From: a bacterium
GTDB taxonomy: Bacteria > Bacillota_I > Bacilli_A > RF39 > UBA660
Direction of reading: 5' to 3'
NCBI GenBank assembly: GCA_019421005.1
Contig: JAHZGA010000002.1
Span: 10,204-74,203 of the forward strand
Length of the DNA: 64,000 nucleotides
The notes beneath the pieces are model-generated. The model searched no databases. It was given only the letters and a program-made list of their open reading frames with translations, and was not told the DNA's origin. Position numbers and translations under genes: made by a program. This document shows positions 8,574 through 24,376 of the stretch, one piece after another; positions within the stretch are counted from its first letter, which is position 1; the number at the start of each line of letters is the position of its first letter.

Positions 8574-10592
8574 CTACCTTTTAATGCCATATTCTTTTTC
8601 TTTTTGTTGCCTAAAAAACTTTGAACGACTTTCTTTTTTCTTCTTCATCAAAGTTTTATCTAAAGGTTCCATACTTGCTTTCATATCGTTTATAATAAAA
8701 GTCGTTTCATTTCTTGGGTCTGCACCAATATATTCAATTTGTGCGTCTTGATTTTTGCTAATGTCATATTTTGAAATATACGAAGTATATGTACCTCTGC
8801 CACTAGTTGCCATAGACAATTCTAAAGGAAAATTCATCATATTAGATGCTGGAACCTCACCTTCTAAAGTTATCACATGATCAAAATGATTAGTAATCTC
8901 ATATAAACCATTTTTTGAAGATAATAATTTAATGACAGAACTCAAATCTTTTTCTGGTAAAGTTATAATGTATTTTAATATTGGTTCTAATAATTTCATT
9001 TTAGCTTGTTTTAAGCATCTAAATAGCGCAAGTGGTGTAATTATATTAAAGTGCATTGGATCACTTCCCATTGAATCAAATTGCCCGTCAATTAATGCTA
9101 CTTCCATATCTGTTAATTCCCAACCATTTAAACCTTGTTTAGAATAATAGTTAATTAATCTTTCAACTTGTCTCTGATATTTTAAATGTAAAAAGTCAGT
9201 AGAAACTTTAGAAACATATTTAAAGCCACTTCCTCTTTCTAAAGGAGTAACTTCTAATTCGATACCAGAAACCGTTGTGTAGGTTGCTTTTGCTCGAGAT
9301 GTAGTAGTTGGAAATTCTTTATGAATAACAACTGGATTTTCAATATTAACTTTTAACCCAAATCTTTCATCTAATAAAGTTTTAACAATTTGTGCTTGAA
9401 CTTCGCCCATTAAACTACAAAAAATCTAATTTGTTCGTTCATTATATCTTACATTTAAATAAGGATCTTCCTCATTTAATATTTTCAATGCCTTCATAAG
9501 TTCTATTGTATCCTCTTTTTTTTCTGGATTTATTTCCATTGTAAGTAGCGGTTTAACAAAACTTATATATTTATCAAATCCTTGTTTATTACCAATAATT
9601 TGTCCACATTTTACATCAAGACCATTAATAATAGCAATATCTCCACTATAAACTTTATCTACAGAAAGCATTTTAGTACCACTGGCAATAGTTAAATTTT
9701 TAATTTTTTCTATTTTTTCGTCAGTGGTTTTAACTGTATCACGATTTTCTAACTTTCCATTTAAAACTTTAACATATGCATTTTTTCCATTATCGCCAAC
9801 TCTAATCATAAAAACATAAGCAGATAATTCACTATCTAATTTTTTGATTGTTGTTGGTATATATCTGGAAATTGCTTCTACCAAGTCATCAACACCAACA
9901 TCTATTAATGCACTCCCACCAATTACTGGAAATAATTTACAACTATGAGTTAAATTATAAATTTTTTCTGTTAACCAATCACAATCAATATCAAAACCAT
10001 TAGTATATTTCTCTAAAACTTCATCATCTATCATTGATAGTTCTTCAATAATATCTTCAATTTTTGATTCATCAATAGTTAAAGAACCATCTTCATTTTT
10101 TCTTACATGCTTTAAGGTTAAGATAGGTACTTTCAAATTATTTTGCAATTCTGCAACAACTCTATCATAATCTGCACCGTGTCTATCCATTTTATTAATA
10201 AAAATTATTACTGGAACATTTTTTTCTTGTAGTGCTCTCCAAATAGTATAGGTTTGTGCTTCTAATCCTTCAACACCAGAAATAACCAAAATTGCTCCGT
10301 CTAAAACATTTATAGCCCTTTCAACCTCTGCTGAAAAATCAACATGACCCGGAGTGTCAATTAGTTGAATAGTTTTTCCGTCTAAATCAAACGAAACAAT
10401 AGAATCTCTAACAGTTATCCCCCGTTCTTTTTCAACTTTCATATTATCTGTAACTGTATTACCAGTATCAACCCTTCCAATACTATCTATAACTTTAGTA
10501 TGATATAACAAATGTTCTGTTATGGTTGTTTTACCTGCATTTGCATGCGCAAAAATACCTAAAGTTAAAACTCTTTTATCTTTTCTATCCAA
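8574..10592 (-). pseudogene. Tet(M)/Tet(O)-like translational GTPase (ribosomal-protection/EF-G family) interrupted by one in-frame TAG
   Basis: G-domain motifs AHANAGKTT, DTPGH, NKMD, and a TetM-like N-terminus. ORFs 9426..10601 and 8574..9410 are in the same frame and are separated only by TAG at 9426-9428 (..YNERTN*IFCSLMGEVQAQIV..). The likely start is TTG 10592, after AGGTGA. Confidence 0.75.
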
Positions 10593-17408: not shown

Positions 17409-17951
17409 TTATAATTTTATACTATCAAATATATTTTCTTCTATATCATAAATTGTAAATTTCTTGCTTTCATATATCATATATGTAGGTTTATTATTTT
17501 CTTTAGGTATAGATATTGAACCAACATTAATGTATACCATATCTTCATTCTTTTTTATGTAAGGTATATGTTCATGACCATATATCAATATACCTTTTCT
17601 ATTATATTTTTTATGTTTCTCAAAACTATATTCATTTCCATGAGTTAAATACATATCTAAACCGTCCACACATATTAAAGCCAAATTATTACATATTGGA
17701 AAATCACTTGCCTTAATATCGACATCAGAATCACAATTGCCTTTCAAACAAATAATTTTATCGGAGTATTTAGTTAATATATCTTTAACACTCACACTGT
17801 TAATTTTATATTTTTGATTATATGTAGGTCCAGAATAATATAAATCCCCAAGGACTACCAATTTATCTATTTTTTCTTTCTTAATAATATCTTCTATTTT
17901 TTTTAAATTAACATCAATACCATGTATATCTGATATAAATAATATCTTCAT
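17409..17951 (-). CDS. YfcE/MJ0936-family metallophosphoesterase
   Basis: MKILFISDIHG, LGDLYY, GNCD, GHEH motifs. AAGGAGAG lies upstream. Confidence 0.85.
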   Translation of the reverse strand: MKILFISDIHGIDVNLKKIEDIIKKEKIDKLVVLGDLYYSGPTYNQKYKINSVSVKDILTKYSDKIICLKGNCDSDVDIKASDFPICNNLALICVDGLDMYLTHGNEYSFEKHKKYNRKGILIYGHEHIPYIKKNEDMVYINVGSISIPKENNKPTYMIYESKKFTIYDIEENIFDSIKL

Positions 17952-18003: not shown

Positions 18004-18993
18004 TTAATCTATCTCTTTTTCATAATAATTAACAATAACTTTTTCCCCATTTGGATAACATTCATAACCAGTTTTAATATATTTGGTAAAACCCATATTA
18101 AAATATATTTGCATATTTCGTACTTCACATGGTTCTACACCCAATGTTAATGATGTAAAACCTCTTTCTTTTAAATCTTTTTCCATAAATTTGTAAATCA
18201 TAGAAAAATATCCTTTATTCTCAAAATCCTTATTTGTTCTAAAAGCACTCAAATAAGCTTTTTTACTATCAATTAAACCATCTTTATTTTGCATATCTAA
18301 ATCATTTTTAGAAATAATTGCTGTACATTCAGTAATTATTTCTTCATTTAATAATCCCATATAGACAATTCTTGTATCTAAATTTCTCAAAGAAATATTT
18401 TTAAATTGTTTCCACATTAAAGAATTATTATTTCTAGCTATCTCTTCATCCCATTTTTTTATAATCATGTCTTTATTAGCTATAACACATTTATAATTTG
18501 TATCACTATCTTTTATTTTTTTTATATCTATTAATCCTCTAGTATGATAACCTTGTTTTTTATAAAACTCAATAGCAGTCTTATTATAAGCAAACACATC
18601 AATATAAATATATTCACATCCAACACTTTTAAAATAATATTCCATTTTATTCATTAGTTTTTGCCCTATACCTTTACTTCTAGTTTTTTTAGATACTATA
18701 AGTTCTGATATTTCACCACTTTTAGGGCATTTATAATCTAAATAATCATACTCATCATAAGTTCTAATATATCCCATAATTAAACCTATTATTTTATCAT
18801 TTTCTTTTGCTAAATAACATTTTCCTTTATTATTATTTACTTCTTCTAAATCTAAAATAGCCATTTTATCTCTATATTCTGAATGCAATTGATCTAAATT
18901 ATCTCTATCAATTGATAAAATATATTCCTCTAATTCAACTAATAAATCTTTTACATCCTCTAAATATTTATCTTCGTATTCTAATATTTTCAT
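18004..18993 (-). CDS. GNAT-family N-acetyltransferase (two tandem GNAT-like halves)
   Basis: The first half has RSKGIGQKLMNKME (Q/RxxGxG/A acetyl-CoA loop). The second half has ENKGYFSMIYKFME. Confidence 0.75.
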   Translation of the reverse strand: MKILEYEDKYLEDVKDLLVELEEYILSIDRDNLDQLHSEYRDKMAILDLEEVNNNKGKCYLAKENDKIIGLIMGYIRTYDEYDYLDYKCPKSGEISELIVSKKTRSKGIGQKLMNKMEYYFKSVGCEYIYIDVFAYNKTAIEFYKKQGYHTRGLIDIKKIKDSDTNYKCVIANKDMIIKKWDEEIARNNNSLMWKQFKNISLRNLDTRIVYMGLLNEEIITECTAIISKNDLDMQNKDGLIDSKKAYLSAFRTNKDFENKGYFSMIYKFMEKDLKERGFTSLTLGVEPCEVRNMQIYFNMGFTKYIKTGYECYPNGEKVIVNYYEKEID

Positions 18994-19591
18994 TTTTCAA
19001 ATAATAATCCTTTATTAATTCATATTTGGAAAAAGTTAATATTCCATCATAAAAGGTATAAGGTGATTCTTTTGTTACTTCACCAGTTTTACTAAAACCT
19101 AATTTTTCAAATATTTTACACGATGCTGTATTATCTTTTACTGCACTGGAAGAAATACCATTTATTCCTACTTCATTAAAAAGATAAGTTATCATTGCTT
19201 CAATAGCTTCTGTTGCATAACCTTTCCTTTGATAAATTGGATCAATATACCACCCTACATCACGAATAGTAATATCTTCGCCACTTTCTTGAGCAGTAAC
19301 TTGTCCTATAACTTCTTCTTTACCGCTATTGGTATATTCATTCTTTAAAAATACACTCCATCCAAATACATCACTACTATTAGCATTATCTACTTTAGAT
19401 TTATAAAATTTTTCTTGTGTTTTCCATGACCAATAGTCTTTATCATTCGCATGTTTTTTAGAACTTACTAAATACCATTTATTTACCTCTGGTATCATTA
19501 ATATTTCCCATAATCTTTTTTGTTCTTCCATTTGGGAACTTCTTAAATATAACCTTTCAGTTTCTATTGTTTTACTACCAAGCATTTTCAC
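18968..19591 (-). CDS. GNAT-family N-acetyltransferase (RimJ/RimL-like)
   Basis: TERLYLR N-terminal signature and YQRKGYATEAIEAMI acetyl-CoA loop. GTG start follows AGAGGTGA. Confidence 0.8.
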   Translation of the reverse strand: MKMLGSKTIETERLYLRSSQMEEQKRLWEILMIPEVNKWYLVSSKKHANDKDYWSWKTQEKFYKSKVDNANSSDVFGWSVFLKNEYTNSGKEEVIGQVTAQESGEDITIRDVGWYIDPIYQRKGYATEAIEAMITYLFNEVGINGISSSAVKDNTASCKIFEKLGFSKTGEVTKESPYTFYDGILTFSKYELIKDYYLKNENIRIRR

Positions 19592-19685: not shown

Positions 19686-20225
19686 TTATAAAGGTAATAC
19701 TTTATCTGTTTTAATTCTAACAATAACCCCTTTAACATTCTTATCAAATTTTCTCCAAGTGGTTTCTTCAAATATTTCAAAGCCTACATCTAAAAATGTT
19801 TTTAAAGTATTTTCTCTATCAATTTCAAAACTATCATATAAATATTCTATTCCATTATTATAAGCAACTTTTATTAATAACTTTAAAGCATCCTTGGAAT
19901 AACCTTTATTTCTATATTTAGCCTCAATTACTATACCACAATCATAATAATCACTATCTTTATCATATTGATAATTTACATATCCAACATACTCATTAAT
20001 ATCACAATCTTTTATATATGCAAAATATCTATTTTCATTTATTCTTCTATCATAAACCTCTTGCCATCTTTCTTTAGGAAAATCAATACATCCTGTATCA
20101 TAATGATATCCAAAATAAGTTACATCATATCCAGCATTATAACTCATTGTAGTTGGATCACTTTCTAATTTTTGTTCATAAGAGTATTCTTTTATTTGTG
20201 GAACTACTAATTTTATATTTTTCAT
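19686..20225 (-). CDS. GNAT-family N-acetyltransferase
   Basis: YRNKGYSKDALKLLI acetyl-CoA loop. The start directly abuts the stop of the upstream ASCH-deaminase gene. Confidence 0.8.
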   Translation of the reverse strand: MKNIKLVVPQIKEYSYEQKLESDPTTMSYNAGYDVTYFGYHYDTGCIDFPKERWQEVYDRRINENRYFAYIKDCDINEYVGYVNYQYDKDSDYYDCGIVIEAKYRNKGYSKDALKLLIKVAYNNGIEYLYDSFEIDRENTLKTFLDVGFEIFEETTWRKFDKNVKGVIVRIKTDKVLPL

Positions 20226-20975
20226 TTATACTCTTTCTTTTCCCCACCAACTAGGAATTAAAGTTTCTAACTTAATTGTCTCTTTATTTTTTAATTCCTT
20301 TAATATTTCAATATTCTTACTATTCTTATCTAACTGCATTAAATATTCCCTACAAACTCCACATGGATAAATAACATTTCCTTTTGAATCAATACACACC
20401 AATTTTATAATTTCATTTTCTCCATTAGTTATCATATTTGCAATAGCATTTCTTTCTGCACACATTCCTAAACTTGAAGCAGTATCTATACAAACTCCAG
20501 TATAAATATTATGATTTTTAGTTAATATTGCTGCACTAACTTGACCAGCATAAATCATACCTGATACTTTTCTAGAATTTCTAACCATTTTAGCTTTTTT
20601 ATATAACTCTTTCCAAACAGTATTTTCACTATACAAGTATTCCACCTCAATAGCGTATACGCCATTTTTCTTAATAGCCTCTTCATATCCATTAATTTTG
20701 TTTACATTTTTAATTGATTTTTCTTTATTATTTGTTGAAGATGTTGTATATTTTGTACCTTCTAAAGTAAATAACTCATCTAGCGTATTATAATAATTTA
20801 CACGTTCTACTCTTACATAAAATATACCTAATTTGTTACTAGTAAATTCAATAACATCGTTTTTTCTTAATTTGCCATAATCATACTTTCCAGTATTTGC
20901 CCTTATTTCTATTTTTTTAGAACCTTTTTTAATACTTTCACTGGCTCTATCATTAATTTCTAATTTAAATACCAT
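20226..20975 (-). CDS. ASCH (PUA-like) domain fused to a cytidine/blasticidin-S-deaminase-family zinc deaminase
   Basis: N-terminus: IKKGSKKIEIRANTG...NDVIEFTS...GVYAIEVEYL (ASCH-like). C-terminus: CAERNAI ... PCGVCREYL (CDA-fold zinc ligands). Confidence 0.75.
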   Translation of the reverse strand: MVFKLEINDRASESIKKGSKKIEIRANTGKYDYGKLRKNDVIEFTSNKLGIFYVRVERVNYYNTLDELFTLEGTKYTTSSTNNKEKSIKNVNKINGYEEAIKKNGVYAIEVEYLYSENTVWKELYKKAKMVRNSRKVSGMIYAGQVSAAILTKNHNIYTGVCIDTASSLGMCAERNAIANMITNGENEIIKLVCIDSKGNVIYPCGVCREYLMQLDKNSKNIEILKELKNKETIKLETLIPSWWGKERV

Positions 20976-20989
20976 TTTCTTTCTCCTTT

Positions 20990-21015
20990 AAAAAAATTCT
21001 GCATAATGCAGAATT
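20990..21015 (-). terminator. intrinsic terminator of the leader (attenuator) upstream of the ASCH-deaminase gene
   Basis: Minus strand reads AATTCTGCA-TTA-TGCAGAATT followed by a U7 run. The RBS AAAGGAG and ATG 20975 follow immediately. Confidence 0.7.
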
Positions 21016-21036
21016 AATTAAAGTAAAATGATACAT

Positions 21037-21093
21037 CTAGTATATTAAAAGTGCGATTAATTCTGCATTATTTATAATTCGTAAATTTTTCAT
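21037..21093 (-). CDS. 18-codon leader peptide ORF (MKNLRIINNAELIALLIY)
   Basis: Not in the ORF track. AAAGGAGTG lies 8 nt upstream of ATG 21093, and the ORF ends at TAG 21037-21039. Codons 8-13 constitute antiterminator segment A. Confidence 0.45.
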   Translation of the reverse strand: MKNLRIINNAELIALLIY

Positions 21094-21123
21094 AATTAAT
21101 CACACTCCTTTCTTTAAAACAAT

Positions 21124-21152
21124 TTACACATTCATTATAAAATATTTATTCT
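21124..21152 (-). promoter_or_regulatory. consensus sigma-A-type promoter for the leader/ASCH-deaminase operon
   Basis: Minus strand reads TTGACA, a 17-nt spacer, then TATAAT (21152-21147 and 21129-21124). The predicted TSS is about 21117, just upstream of the leader SD. Confidence 0.65.
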
Positions 21153-21217
21153 ACTTTGTCAAATCATTTGTAAATATATTTTTTTTATGTTAAAATAACT
21201 TGAACGGAGGAATACGT

Positions 21218-21916
21218 ATGAAAAAATTTATTTTACCTATAGTCATTATATTCATAATTCTTGTTTTTAGTTTTAATATTCCTAAAGATAATAAAACTGA
21301 AAAAATAAAAAAAGTTGATGAAATTAAAGAACAAGAAAATATAAAAGAACAAAATAACTTTGATAATTTGATGAAAAACTATGATAACAAAAACATTCTT
21401 GCTTTTGTAGAAATTCCTAATGTTCTTTTAGAACCAATCGTTCAAGCTGATGATAATGAATACTATTTAAACTATAACATCAACAATGAAAAAGATATCA
21501 ACGGAGCGACATTTTTAGATTATAGAATTAATATAAATAATTCTAATAAAATATTAATTTATGGCCACAGTGATAAGTCCAAAACATTACCCTTTACTAA
21601 ATTATCAAATTATAAAGATAAAGATTTCTTTATAAAAAATCCATATATATATTTATATACTAAAGATAATAATTATAAATTTAAAATCTTTTCTACCTAT
21701 ATCGAAACTAGTGATTTTGATTACTTAAATATTGAAAGTTTTAATGGACTAACTTGGTTAGAACATTTAAAAAAGCTTAAAAATAAATCATTTTATGAAA
21801 CAAATGTTGAAGTAGAAGATAATAAAAAAATCATTATTTTACAAACTTGTAGTTTTGATAATGAGTATAAAAATTATAGTCAAAAATATCATTTAGTAAT
21901 AGGAATATCTACATAA
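21218..21916 (+). CDS. srtB: class B sortase
   Basis: N-terminal anchor, LIYGHS (catalytic His region), IIILQTCS (TLxTC-type Cys). ATG 21218 follows GGAGGAA. Confidence 0.8.
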   Translation: MKKFILPIVIIFIILVFSFNIPKDNKTEKIKKVDEIKEQENIKEQNNFDNLMKNYDNKNILAFVEIPNVLLEPIVQADDNEYYLNYNINNEKDINGATFLDYRININNSNKILIYGHSDKSKTLPFTKLSNYKDKDFFIKNPYIYLYTKDNNYKFKIFSTYIETSDFDYLNIESFNGLTWLEHLKKLKNKSFYETNVEVEDNKKIIILQTCSFDNEYKNYSQKYHLVIGIST

Positions 21917-21980
21917 CATTGACACATAGAAATTGATTTTATAAAACTTATAAGCTATAATTAAATTAGGATGTGATTTT

Positions 21981-22916
21981 ATGGATATTAATGAACTAGA
22001 AAAATTAAGAAAAAAAATTGTTTTAAACAAAGTAACTATTTATCTTATCTACCTTGCCCTTTACCCAGTATTTATTATTTTATGTAACCAATACCTTAAA
22101 ACTTATATTGAAAATGGTGCTGGAATAGCTGTTTATGTAGTCGGAATAGTATTTTTTATAGTCTTTACTACTATAACAGATAATATTGTTAATAAAAAAA
22201 ATCTAAATTTTTTCATTAGAAAATATAAAGAAAAATTTGTTGAAAATACTTTTAAACAAGTATTCGATAATTTTACTTATGAACCTAATCAAGGTTTAAG
22301 TAAAGAAAGATTTAGGAAAACTAATATTTTAAAATATGATGATATATATTCCTCAAATGATTATATGCAAGGTACATATCATAATACTAGTTTTGAAATA
22401 GCTGATGTAGAAATTAAAGAAGAACATACCTCTACCGATAGTGATGGTCATAGAAATACTTATTACTTAACAGTCTTTTTAGGAAAATGGTTTATTTTTA
22501 ATTTTAATAAAAACTTTAAAAATAATCTTCAAATTGTTGAAAAAGATTTTAAAACATTTAATGAAAGAAATTGGGGAAATGAAAAATTACATAAACTAGA
22601 ATTAGAAAGCGTATCATTTAATAAGGATTTTAAAGTATATTGCCATGATGATCATGAAGCTTTTTATATCTTGACACCTAACTTTATGAATAATATTGAA
22701 AATCTATGTAAAAAAACTAAAGGTTATATAGTATTAGGATTTATGAATAATCAATTACATATTGGTTTAAATACTCTTAAAGATTCTTTTGAACCAAATA
22801 TATTTAAAAAAATTGATGAAAATATAATTTCTAATGAAGTTAATAATAATATCAAAGAAATAATAACTTTTATTGATGAATTAGGTTTAGATAACAACTT
22901 ATTTAAGGAGAATTAA
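21981..22916 (+). CDS. DUF3137-like membrane protein
   Basis: Two N-terminal TM helices followed by a cytoplasmic domain (..YMQGTYHNTSFEIADVEIKEEH..TVFLGKWFIFNFNKNF..) that I recognise from memory as DUF3137. This family is the usual partner of LemA. Confidence 0.55.
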   Translation: MDINELEKLRKKIVLNKVTIYLIYLALYPVFIILCNQYLKTYIENGAGIAVYVVGIVFFIVFTTITDNIVNKKNLNFFIRKYKEKFVENTFKQVFDNFTYEPNQGLSKERFRKTNILKYDDIYSSNDYMQGTYHNTSFEIADVEIKEEHTSTDSDGHRNTYYLTVFLGKWFIFNFNKNFKNNLQIVEKDFKTFNERNWGNEKLHKLELESVSFNKDFKVYCHDDHEAFYILTPNFMNNIENLCKKTKGYIVLGFMNNQLHIGLNTLKDSFEPNIFKKIDENIISNEVNNNIKEIITFIDELGLDNNLFKEN

Positions 22917-22917
22917 T

Positions 22918-23445
22918 ATGTGGATAATATTAGGAATTGTTTTAATAATTTTAATATGGTATATATCAACCTATAATAAATTTAAAAAATTAATTATAAA
23001 AGTAGATGAAGCTGATTCAGGTATAGATGTTGCACTTACAAAAAGATATGATTTAATTACTAAAATGGTTGATGTTGTTAAAGGTTATACTAAACATGAA
23101 AAAGAAACTATTTTAGAAGTAATTAAATTAAGAAAACATATGAGTATTAATGAAAAAAATGAAGTTTTAAATAAAATGAATAATTCAATAAATAAAATTG
23201 AAATTATAGCTGAAAATTATCCTGATTTAAAGGCTAGTGAAAATTTTAAAATATTACAAAAATCTTTATTAAATGTTGAAGAACATTTAGCAGCATCTAG
23301 AAGAATGTATAATTCTAATGTATCAATTTATAATCAATATTTAGAATCTTTTCCATCAATGATTATAGGATCAATTTTAAAACTCACTAAAAAAGAATAT
23401 TTTGAAGCAGATGATGAAAAAACTGTTAATATATCATTAAAGTAG
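22918..23445 (+). CDS. lemA: LemA family protein
   Basis: N-terminal TM helix, YNKFKKLIIKVDEADSGIDVALTKRYDLI..., and NYPDLKASENFKILQKSLLNVEEHLAASRRMYN, typical of LemA. Translationally coupled to the upstream gene (TAATATG). Confidence 0.85.
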   Translation: MWIILGIVLIILIWYISTYNKFKKLIIKVDEADSGIDVALTKRYDLITKMVDVVKGYTKHEKETILEVIKLRKHMSINEKNEVLNKMNNSINKIEIIAENYPDLKASENFKILQKSLLNVEEHLAASRRMYNSNVSIYNQYLESFPSMIIGSILKLTKKEYFEADDEKTVNISLK

Positions 23446-23468
23446 TAAACACTTGTTTACTACTTTTA
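23439..23468. terminator. bidirectional terminator between lemA (+) and the ASCH-dCMP deaminase gene (-)
   Basis: AGTAGTAAAC-ACTT-GTTTACTACT hairpin with T-runs/A-runs on both sides. It overlaps both stop codons. Confidence 0.65.
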
Positions 23469-24293
23469 ATATCCTCTTACACCTTCTAGGCTTTCATCAT
23501 TTTCAATTAATTCTTGAGTTAATATAGTTCGGTAACTTGTTTTACTATCACGAATAATTATTTTTTTTATTCCACTATTAATAATTACTCTTTTACACAT
23601 TGAACAAGGCATTGATTTATCAACATATTCTTGAGTTTTTGAGTCTATTCCTACCATATAAAGAGTACCATCAAGCATATCTTTTCTTGAAGCTGATATA
23701 ATTGCATTTTGTTCAGCATGAACACTACGACACATTTCATATCTTTCCCCTCTAGGAATATTAAGGCTTTCTCTAATACAATATCCTAAATCATCACAAT
23801 TTTTTCTTTTTCTAGGGGCACCATTATAACCAGTTGAAATTATTTCATCATTTTTAACTATAATTGCTCCCCATTTTTTTCTTAAACATGTTGATCTCTC
23901 TAAAGCAGTTTCAGCTATGTTTAAATAATAATTATTTTTATCAATTCTATTGACATTATTTATAAGTTTAATTTCTATACCAACAACACCATATTTTTTT
24001 ATATCATCTTCACTGTAATATTGTTCCATATCATTGGGATCACTTTTTTCATCTTTATTATATCCTAAACTTATTTTATCAAATTTTTCATATAATTTTT
24101 TAAAACTATCAAATAAATGTAATTTTAAAACTTCAACAGTAATTACTTCACTATTAGATAAATTAGTAAACTCAATTAAATCACCTGGTTGAATTTTTTT
24201 TCTTTTTTCATCAAATAATCTTAATTCAATTGTTTTAGTTTGATTTTTTATTTTTTGAAATGGATTATCTTGTAATTTCATTCTATATATCAT
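23466..24293 (-). CDS. ASCH (PUA-like) domain fused to a dCMP/ComEB-type deoxycytidylate deaminase
   Basis: N-terminus: FQKIKNQTKTIELRLFDEKRKKIQPGDLIEFTN...KYGVVGIEIKLI (ASCH-like). C-terminus: HAEQNAI ... PCSMCKRVIINSGI. Start chosen at ATG 24293 after AGAGGTG. Confidence 0.8.
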   Translation of the reverse strand: MIYRMKLQDNPFQKIKNQTKTIELRLFDEKRKKIQPGDLIEFTNLSNSEVITVEVLKLHLFDSFKKLYEKFDKISLGYNKDEKSDPNDMEQYYSEDDIKKYGVVGIEIKLINNVNRIDKNNYYLNIAETALERSTCLRKKWGAIIVKNDEIISTGYNGAPRKRKNCDDLGYCIRESLNIPRGERYEMCRSVHAEQNAIISASRKDMLDGTLYMVGIDSKTQEYVDKSMPCSMCKRVIINSGIKKIIIRDSKTSYRTILTQELIENDESLEGVRGY

Positions 24294-24376
24294 TTTATAC
24301 ACCTCTAAATTAATAATAACATATTAAAAAGTTATATTCAATATTTAAAAAAAAATATATTAAATTTAACATATTT

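Follow-up and report, generated by a model that had tools for sequence, protein, structure and literature searches.

Why does a gut bacterium with a reduced genome carry, 2.5 kb apart, two genes in which an ASCH domain is joined to a cytosine deaminase? We addressed this question in a window of 64,000 nucleotides (the whole stretch of DNA analyzed, that is, positions 10,204 to 74,203 of contig JAHZGA010000002.1, GenBank assembly GCA_019421005.1) from a member of the RF39 lineage of Bacilli, whose assembly is about 1 Mb long, has 24% G+C, and is 88% complete. The first gene, P1, encodes an ASCH domain (here, ASCH1) followed by a cytidine deaminase (CDA)-type domain (here, CDA1); the second, P2, encodes another ASCH domain (here, ASCH2) followed by a dCMP deaminase domain (Table 1). 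In our preferred reading, to which we assign a probability of about 0.5, the two fusions share sequential N4-deacylation and deamination. The ASCH domain would hydrolyze an N4-acyl group off a cytosine compound, after which the deaminase fused to it would turn the freed cytosine ring into uracil. We infer the activities, their coupling, and the substrates; among mechanisms in which both the ASCH and the deaminase halves are used, this sequence of reactions is the simplest.

Both open reading frames (ORFs) and the motifs quoted for them in the original prediction are present on the minus strand, and searches of Pfam, NCBIfam, and the PDB identify ASCH and deaminase domains in each. In P1, which contains the motifs CAERNAI and PCGVCREYL, residues 140 to 216 match Pfam dCMP_cyt_deam_1 (31.8 bits; cut-off, 25), and the protein scores 77 with NCBIfam PRK05578 “cytidine deaminase” (cut-off, 74). 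A phmmer search of the PDB paired the P1 deaminase with Bacillus subtilis Cdd (1jtk; 8e-11) and P1 with the ASCH proteins PF0455 (2.6e-5) and PH0355 (8.4e-5). P2 matches Pfam dCMP_cyt_deam_1 (66.7 bits) and, above the cut-off, Pfam ASCH (31.0 bits); its PDB matches are the Streptococcus mutans dCMP deaminase 2hvv (1e-16) and PH0355 (5e-12). Thus, as had been proposed, one deaminase is of the nucleoside type and the other of the dCMP type. The ASCH assignment, for which a fold comparison had been recommended, holds for both N-terminal domains. The AlphaFold2 model of P1 (56 homologues; pLDDT 90.5, pTM 0.86) has PH0355 as the top Foldseek match of its N-terminal half in the PDB (TM 0.89; rmsd, 2.1 Å), and its C-terminal half matches tetrameric CDAs and blasticidin-S deaminases (TM 0.75 to 0.83). 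Given the pTM, P1 is predicted to be a rigidly packed two-domain body. In the model of P2 (pLDDT 82.4), the ASCH domain is confident and matches PH0355 (TM 0.87), and the other half matches the S. mutans dCMP deaminase. The better start of P2 is the ATG at 24293, 8 nt past an AGAGG Shine-Dalgarno sequence; the GTG at 24302 lies within that sequence.

Lys20, Glu23, and Arg25 occur in both ASCH domains, within the octapeptides GSKKIEIR (P1) and QTKTIELR (P2). They are invariant in 44 full-length P1 homologues (about 70% overall identity) and nearly invariant in the ASCH2 family. By this octapeptide (G-x-K-x-x-E-x-R), both domains are assigned to the GKER type, as found in Thermus ASCH, EOLA1, and TRIP4. 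They share with the GKER amidohydrolases (TthASCH/TTHA0113, EOLA1, the ASCH domain of TRIP4, PH0355, and PF0455) the beta-barrel, the Lys-x-x-Glu-x-Arg motif, and a length of about 110 amino acids (aa). Unlike in those proteins, the ASCH domain of P1 and P2 is covalently joined to a cytosine deaminase. In P2, moreover, the octapeptide starts with Gln instead of Gly, and P1 ASCH is divergent, with no aromatic residue at the Phe12 position and no close stand-alone relatives (a search gave just 18 short or fragmentary matches). By residue count, not by structural alignment, we take Phe12 of P2 to correspond to the substrate-positioning Tyr14 of the Thermus enzyme. The original prediction had also asked whether the catalytic residues of Escherichia coli YqfB are kept. 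The catalytic Lys and Arg are; the nucleophile Thr24 is not, its place being taken by Glu23 in both proteins. YqfB, of the GKTR type, thus shares with P1 and P2 the ASCH fold, the active-site Lys and Arg, and the proposed kind of chemistry, whereas it belongs to another clade and is a stand-alone monomer; it tolerates bases, nucleosides, and nucleotides.

The conservation of these residues bears on a quite unlikely alternative, in which the ASCH domains are noncatalytic binding or regulatory modules that recognize a modified base or nucleotide, tether the enzyme to RNA or the degradosome, or modulate oligomerization, and the substrates of the deaminases are plain cytidine or dCMP. ASCH is a PUA-like fold, as are known readers, and many enzymes with nothing else in common carry it as a fusion; the P1 domain is divergent, falls below the Pfam cut-off, and lacks the aromatic residue of P2, and the P2 deaminase shares about 80% identity with stand-alone enzymes, which function with no ASCH domain. 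A reader-only role, however, leaves the retention of the hydrolysis residues throughout the P1 and ASCH2 families unexplained. Moreover, all 19 of 19 ASCH proteins assayed so far, including GKER-type proteins and Pyrococcus paralogues, removed N4-acetylcytidine (ac4C), with Lys and Glu being essential (bioRxiv 10.64898/2026.02.27.708502).

The original prediction regarded the two fusions as paralogous. We reject a duplication of a fused gene. The ASCH domains are only 28% identical and belong to different subfamilies, the deaminase halves are of different families and cannot be aligned, and the two genes differ in age and distribution; hence, P1 and P2 are not paralogues but two independently formed fusions. 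Two independent fusions of ASCH to different cytosine deaminase families constitute “Rosetta-stone” evidence for one pathway.

P1 is the old fusion. Its full-length architecture is frequent in RF39-like gut Bacilli. P1 has 3,409 database matches; the best 120 of them are 246 to 270 aa long and 71 to 76% identical over 98 to 100% of P1, with one near-copy at 98%, and one of the 120 carries the JGI name “cytidine deaminase”. We found a P1 homologue in 53 species-level genomes, a few of them frameshifted or ending at a contig edge. Among 201 genomes sampled evenly across the order, a stand-alone CDA1-type gene is present in 5 and a stand-alone ASCH1-like gene (41 to 48% identity) in about 5. As to whether the architecture is common and already characterized, as the original prediction had asked, P1 is common in one gut lineage, P2 is known from one species, and full-text literature searches returned neither a description nor a characterization of a fusion of ASCH to a deaminase.

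P1 does not provide the housekeeping deaminase. Four CDA-fold proteins are encoded in the assembly, namely, TadA, P1, P2, and a canonical Cdd of 126 aa, which reaches 136 bits with TIGR01354; P1 scores 70, under the cut-off of 113.65. The canonical gene is in a classical ybeY-dgkA-cdd-era operon far from the window (contig C3; locus L094, 515 to 2594), and P1 is extra to it. The zinc ligands of CDA1 (C172, C205, and C208), its catalytic E174, and P204 are all invariant across the subfamily, which is marked by the motifs G160-V-C162-I-D164-T165 and, at the C terminus, LIPSWWG. In the alignment with 1jtk, GCNIENAAYSMCNCAER pairs with GVCIDTAS-SLGMCAER of P1, which confirms the B. subtilis Cdd segment given in the original prediction and bears out its suggestion of a noncanonical pocket. 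The canonical G-C-N-I-E-N is G-V-C-I-D-T throughout the subfamily, so that Asn42 is replaced by Cys162 and Glu44 by Asp164. In CDAs, Asn42 and Glu44 are highly conserved and contact the 3'- and 5'-oxygens of the ribose (PMC9897663).

CDA1 is like the homotetrameric CDAs (B. subtilis Cdd, 1JTK, and human CDA) in fold, CAE...PCxxC zinc site, catalytic Glu, and ELxP C-terminal segment, and it differs from them in the Asn42/Glu44 replacements, the missed TIGR01354 cut-off, the N-terminal ASCH domain, and its place in an attenuator-controlled GNAT operon. With the blasticidin-S deaminases BSD and Bsr it shares a small tetrameric CDA-type fold (TM about 0.76), divergence at the sugar contacts, and the character of an accessory, resistance-like gene, whereas its sequence similarity to them is weaker than that to true CDAs. 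We know of no BSD that carries an ASCH domain. CDA1 is a distinct CDA/blasticidin-deaminase-like paralogue with changed sugar contacts.

P2, in contrast to P1, is a recent fusion. Its full-length form is represented by five database proteins only, which are 99 to 100% identical; all other matches are stand-alone dCMP deaminases of 162 aa with 72 to 85% identity over the C-terminal 58 to 62% of P2. The deaminase half is 79 to 85% identical to 162-aa proteins named dCMP deaminase by JGI and is the only dCMP-deaminase-type gene of the assembly. It resembles dCMP deaminase/ComEB (S. mutans 2HVV and the 162-aa enzymes of gut Bacilli) in the HAE...PCxxC motifs and the Cys/His-rich insert and differs in having an ASCH domain attached through four residues; its score of 53 is under the cut-off of 219 of the TIGR02571 equivalog. 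Membership in the anti-phage dCTP deaminases (AvcD-like; NF041025, PADLOC dCTPase) was rejected (54.7 bits; cut-off, 400). The match covers the deaminase core only (profile positions 344 to 484 of 630), and P2 has no kinase-like domain.

The joint itself (...GIEIKLI-NNVN-RIDKNNYY) can be read against its unfused relatives. Stand-alone ASCH proteins end in ...IKLIDLEK and stand-alone deaminases start with MRRIDKNNYY; the four residues thus stand in for the C-terminal tail of ASCH, the stop codon, and the Met-Arg/Lys start of the deaminase. An assembly artifact was ruled out, because two independent assemblies from other samples contain the same 275-aa ORF, both in the same prmC / LemA-DUF3137 context. 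In the model, the halves look like separate bodies, loosely tethered by a very short linker. Five population variants of P2 differ by missense changes only.

A somewhat unlikely alternative, which concerns P2 only, is that an ASCH gene and an incoming dCMP deaminase gene became joined, by deletion or recombination, in a recent, selectively neutral accident and that the halves are metabolically uncoupled. Besides the 99 to 100% identity of all full-length forms, the low-confidence linker, and the lack of a predicted interface, this is suggested by same-genus genomes in which a stand-alone ASCH2 lies near HD-kinase and NUDIX genes with no close dCMP deaminase; the ASCH2 orthologue of a same-genus genome is a 127-aa stand-alone protein with 59% identity. 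We searched relatives for a preexisting adjacent pair of ASCH and dCMP deaminase genes and found none, nor is there an ASCH gene upstream of the closest stand-alone dCMP deaminases. Among the best 150 of 2,583 ASCH2 relatives, which are stand-alone or fused at either end to GNATs, NUDIX, TrmA/RlmD-type methyltransferases, HD, P-loop kinases, Tpt1, or RNase HII, none has a deaminase domain; the subfamily is promiscuous in its fusion partners. The ratio of missense to silent changes within the species (three haplotypes) is also higher in the ASCH half (4 to 3) than in the deaminase half (2 to 7). Against a neutral origin, the frame is intact in all independent assemblies seen, the polymorphisms spare the catalytic residues (none is at K20, E23, or R25), a second fusion of ASCH to a cytosine deaminase in the same genome favors a shared logic over coincidence, and another lineage has an ASCH2-type gene directly upstream of a P1 homologue.

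For sequential deacylation and deamination by P1, the most likely conversion would be that of N4-acylated cytosine nucleosides to uracil nucleosides. There are two candidate substrates: (i) free ac4C from RNA turnover, which a probable pyrimidine auxotroph would salvage, and (ii) nucleoside natural products with an N4-acylated cytosine or an odd sugar, which would be detoxified. In P2, the ASCH half may deacylate N4-acyl-(deoxy)cytidine nucleotides or nucleosides, or contribute little, and the deaminase would supply dUMP to ThyA. The assembly encodes TmcAL and ThyA, and PyrF was not found in it at its 88% completeness; by gene content, pyrimidine salvage is therefore probably essential to the organism, which would also produce its own ac4C, TmcAL being the tRNA-Met cytidine acetate ligase that writes ac4C34 in Bacilli. 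An order of steps is suggested by human CDA, which is unable to deaminate ac4C (bioRxiv 10.64898/2026.08.01.741249), so that deacetylation must come first. YqfB hydrolyzes N4-acyl derivatives, benzoyl included, of cytosine, cytidine, deoxycytidine, and dCTP (PMC6972931), and concerted action of a CDA and a YqfB-like enzyme has been speculated on before (PMC9897663). How N4-acetylcytidine and other N4-modified cytosines are disposed of or recycled outside Enterobacteria is largely unknown, and ASCH proteins were only recently recognized as amidohydrolases involved in it; P1 and P2 are ready-made candidate bifunctional enzymes for assay. As ASCH-cytosine deaminase fusions, they are variants of known enzyme kinds and would not surprise a specialist.

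Several points weigh against this mechanism. Uridine can be formed from N4-acyl-cytidines by certain tetrameric CDAs of prokaryotes unaided (PMC9897663), so that an ASCH step is not strictly needed. Pfam ASCH (PF04266) matches residues 7 to 113 of P1 with 18.8 bits, slightly under the gathering threshold of 21.2, and P1 has Ser or Ala where P2 has Phe12. P2 is confined to one species, its model has no predicted domain interface (pTM 0.54), and the within-species changes hint at a laxer constraint on its ASCH half, although they are too few for significance. Plain ac4C salvage, in particular, fits poorly with the changed ribose contacts, the GNATs, the attenuator, and the patchy spread of P1, which is found in 13 of the 201 sampled genomes. 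These features, together with the status of CDA1 as an extra paralogue, fit an accessory function better than routine ac4C salvage, and P1 looks like an inducible accessory function.

Table 1. Features of the P1 and P2 loci (positions within the window)
Feature	Coordinates	Strand	Size or residues	Basis or remarks
P1, ASCH1-CDA1 fusion gene	20226..20975	minus	249 aa	ORF, domain searches, AlphaFold2, Foldseek; operon gene 1
ASCH1 domain of P1	20628..20975	minus	residues 1-116	octapeptide G18-S-K20-K-I-E23-I-R25
CDA1 domain of P1	20229..20627	minus	residues 117-249	alignment to 1jtk, invariant columns
P2, ASCH2-dCMP deaminase fusion gene	23466..24293	minus	275 aa	domain searches, AlphaFold2, Foldseek, independent assemblies
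ASCH2 domain of P2	23958..24293	minus	residues 1-112	octapeptide Q18-T-K20-T-I-E23-L-R25
Fusion joint N113-N-V-N116 of P2	23946..23957	minus	residues 113-116	pLDDT <50
dCMP deaminase domain of P2	23469..23945	minus	residues 117-275	motifs HAEQNAI, PCSMCKRVI
Regulatory leader of P1 operon	20988..21162	minus		sequence features and comparison across loci
Perfect sigma-70 promoter	21134-21162	minus		
Leader ORF MKNLRIINNAELIALLIY plus stop	21037-21093	minus	18 codons	
Antiterminator segment inside leader ORF	21056-21070	minus		
Terminator hairpin, then U-run	20995-21015	minus		intrinsic terminator
GNAT acetyltransferase (GNAT179)	19686..20225	minus	179 aa	Pfam Acetyltransf_1; starts 0 nt past P1 stop codon
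RimJ/RimL-like GNAT (GNAT207)	18968..19591	minus	207 aa	Pfam Acetyltransf_3, 79 bits
Double GNAT	18004..18993	minus	329 aa	Pfam Acetyltransf_1, 2 matched stretches
YfcE-type metallophosphoesterase	17409..17951	minus		NCBIfam PRK09453, 157 bits; probably last operon gene

Upstream of P1 lies a leader of four segments, namely, a Shine-Dalgarno region, a leader ORF, an antiterminator, and a terminator. Within the ORF, UAAUGCAGAAUU repeats the 3' arm of the terminator, which allows it to form an antiterminator by pairing with the 5' arm; next to it, UUAAUCAC base-pairs with the Shine-Dalgarno region of the leader itself. The leader peptide, MKNLQ(V/I)INNAELITTPNLLNF, and the four-segment layout are clear in 32 of the 53 loci with a P1 homologue. 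For the 28 that were aligned, the RNAalifold consensus is the antiterminator (12 pairs); since there is hardly any variation among the sequences, covariation is nearly absent. In a sister species, the stand-alone CDA1 gene likewise lies behind a related leader (L104, 1495 to 1560), where a compensatory change (GUGAUCAA:UUGAUCAC) is seen in the Shine-Dalgarno helix and the terminator is apparently absent; further related leaders lie ahead of CDA1 genes in metagenome-assembled genomes (MAGs) of other Bacilli. In the window, neither leader matches a known riboswitch or other Rfam family (only match, freshwater-2, E=0.7, which is noise). From its sequence features, we predict that the P1 leader is a conserved leader-peptide transcription attenuator and a new cis-regulatory element. 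Read-through would require that a ribosome stall near the beginning of the leader ORF. Stall-dependent read-through is typical of genes induced by translation inhibitors and antibiotics, and the signal that induces the leader would point to the true substrate class.

In an unlikely but serious alternative for P1, the operon provides inducible resistance to, or detoxification of, ribosome-targeting cytosine nucleoside antibiotics of the blasticidin S/gougerotin/amicetin class. Here, stalled ribosomes would be sensed by the leader, an N4-acyl group such as that of amicetin-type compounds would be taken off by ASCH1, CDA1 would deaminate the cytosine in the manner of blasticidin-S deaminase, and the GNATs would contribute further inactivation by acetylation; the chemistry is that of sequential deacylation and deamination, and the physiological purpose differs. 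The predicted read-through only upon an early stall and the presence of related leaders before stand-alone CDA1 genes agree with this, as does the acceptance of N4-benzoyl groups by YqfB (PMC6972931). RNA pairing constraints, however, can account for much of the conservation of the leader peptide. The ribose-binding residues of CDA1 are replaced, it is not a housekeeping enzyme, and its fold is about as near to blasticidin-S deaminases (TM 0.75 to 0.77) as to CDAs, yet in sequence true CDAs (8e-11) are nearer to it than blasticidin deaminases are (2e-5 to 4e-4). Stand-alone CDA1 proteins (135 to 147 aa) are 60 to 70% identical across distant phyla, which resembles horizontal spread; the record titles include Enterococcus, Lachnospiraceae, Treponema, Fibrobacter, and Parachlamydiaceae. 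Not all of the MAG titles may be reliable. CDA1 is nevertheless seldom on plasmids, with four records, and we rejected the idea that the subfamily is a typical plasmid gene. To our knowledge, no antibiotic of this class is produced in the gut.

The genes downstream of P1 bear on the same question. Among the 53 loci, P1 is followed by a homologue of GNAT179 in 22, GNAT207 is syntenic in 17, and a 160-aa version of the double GNAT is syntenic in 33; the order P1, GNAT179, GNAT207, GNAT160 recurs in most of the loci, whereas the YfcE phosphoesterase is present in only 5. GNATs are also the commonest neighbors of stand-alone CDA1 genes (9 of 86 neighboring proteins), and the island around the P1 homologues of relatives contains AAC(6')-like, aminoglycoside phosphotransferase-like, and PEP-utilizer (rifampicin-phosphotransferase-like) genes, both of which favor resistance. 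On the other side, the GNATs could not be assigned to a specific resistance or other family; their matches in NCBIfam and the PDB are generic (RimI/RimJ, spermidine, or AAC(6')) and far below cut-offs. If the resistance explanation is true, the widespread P1 family would be an unrecognized antibiotic-inactivating enzyme of the gut microbiome and could act on gemcitabine, cytarabine, and capecitabine-type N4-substituted drugs or prodrugs. We consider it improbable that the P1 operon is a new stall-induced resistance module, spread among reduced-genome gut Bacilli and directed against cytosine-type nucleoside antibiotics of the peptidyl-transferase center, in which the ASCH amidohydrolase takes off the N4-acyl arm and the blasticidin-deaminase-like CDA paralogue destroys the cytosine, with P2 showing the same ASCH-then-deaminate logic at the nucleotide level.

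Relatives often carry GNAT179 as the N terminus of a protein of 486 to 638 aa (L016, 5732 to 7192; L040, 5748 to 7664; L024, 2911 to 4749), in which the GNAT is followed by a Cys/His domain of transglutaminase-like type, in some cases by an AAC(6')-like GNAT, and by a third type of ASCH domain (GKKTATTSLY). Related pieces exist elsewhere in the genome studied here. A fusion of an AAC(6')-like GNAT and ASCH (294 aa; contig C2; L008, 940 to 1824) is followed by a 160-aa GNAT that is a paralogue of the N-terminal half of the double GNAT in the window, and a 264-aa protein (contig C13; L010, 967 to 1761, minus strand) joins ASCH to an unannotated Cys/His domain resembling the middle domain of the 486- to 638-aa proteins. 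Every one of the four ASCH domains of the genome is fused to another domain. The variable island at P1 homologues encodes, in one case, a 149-aa protein that consists of ASCH1 only and, after it, a 634-aa PPDK_N/PEP-utilizer protein (L102/L103, 4001 to 6412) and, in another, a 626-aa protein in which two kinase motifs resemble those of aminoglycoside phosphotransferases (L055, 7442 to 9322); the 634-aa and 626-aa proteins look like small-molecule-modifying enzymes.

Between P1 and P2, the window encodes a class B sortase, a DUF3137 protein, and LemA on the plus strand (21200 to 23445). This block is next to P1 homologues in 0 to 1 of the 53 loci, so it is best regarded as unrelated cargo, and the proximity of P1 and P2 is particular to this species. 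The unfused counterparts have other arrangements. In a same-genus genome (contig C35; L104, 309 to 5517, minus strand), a stand-alone ASCH2 gene is followed by genes for an HD-hydrolase/P-loop-kinase fusion, NUDIX, a PBP fragment, a stand-alone CDA1 (152 aa), and a GNAT. That genome thus has ASCH2 near a CDA1-type deaminase, the two being unfused, with CDA1 and GNAT at the position of P1. One Bacilli MAG (L063, 1104 to 1986) has a stand-alone ASCH2-type gene of 112 aa, after which, at a distance of about 200 bp, come the leader and a P1 homologue that is apparently frameshifted (open frame, 111 aa). Finally, in a same-family genome (contig C3 of G019; L097, 1525 to 3122), a stand-alone dCMP deaminase gene (161 aa) ends on the very base at which tmcAL starts, a connection of dCMP deaminase with ac4C metabolism that is absent from the other loci examined.

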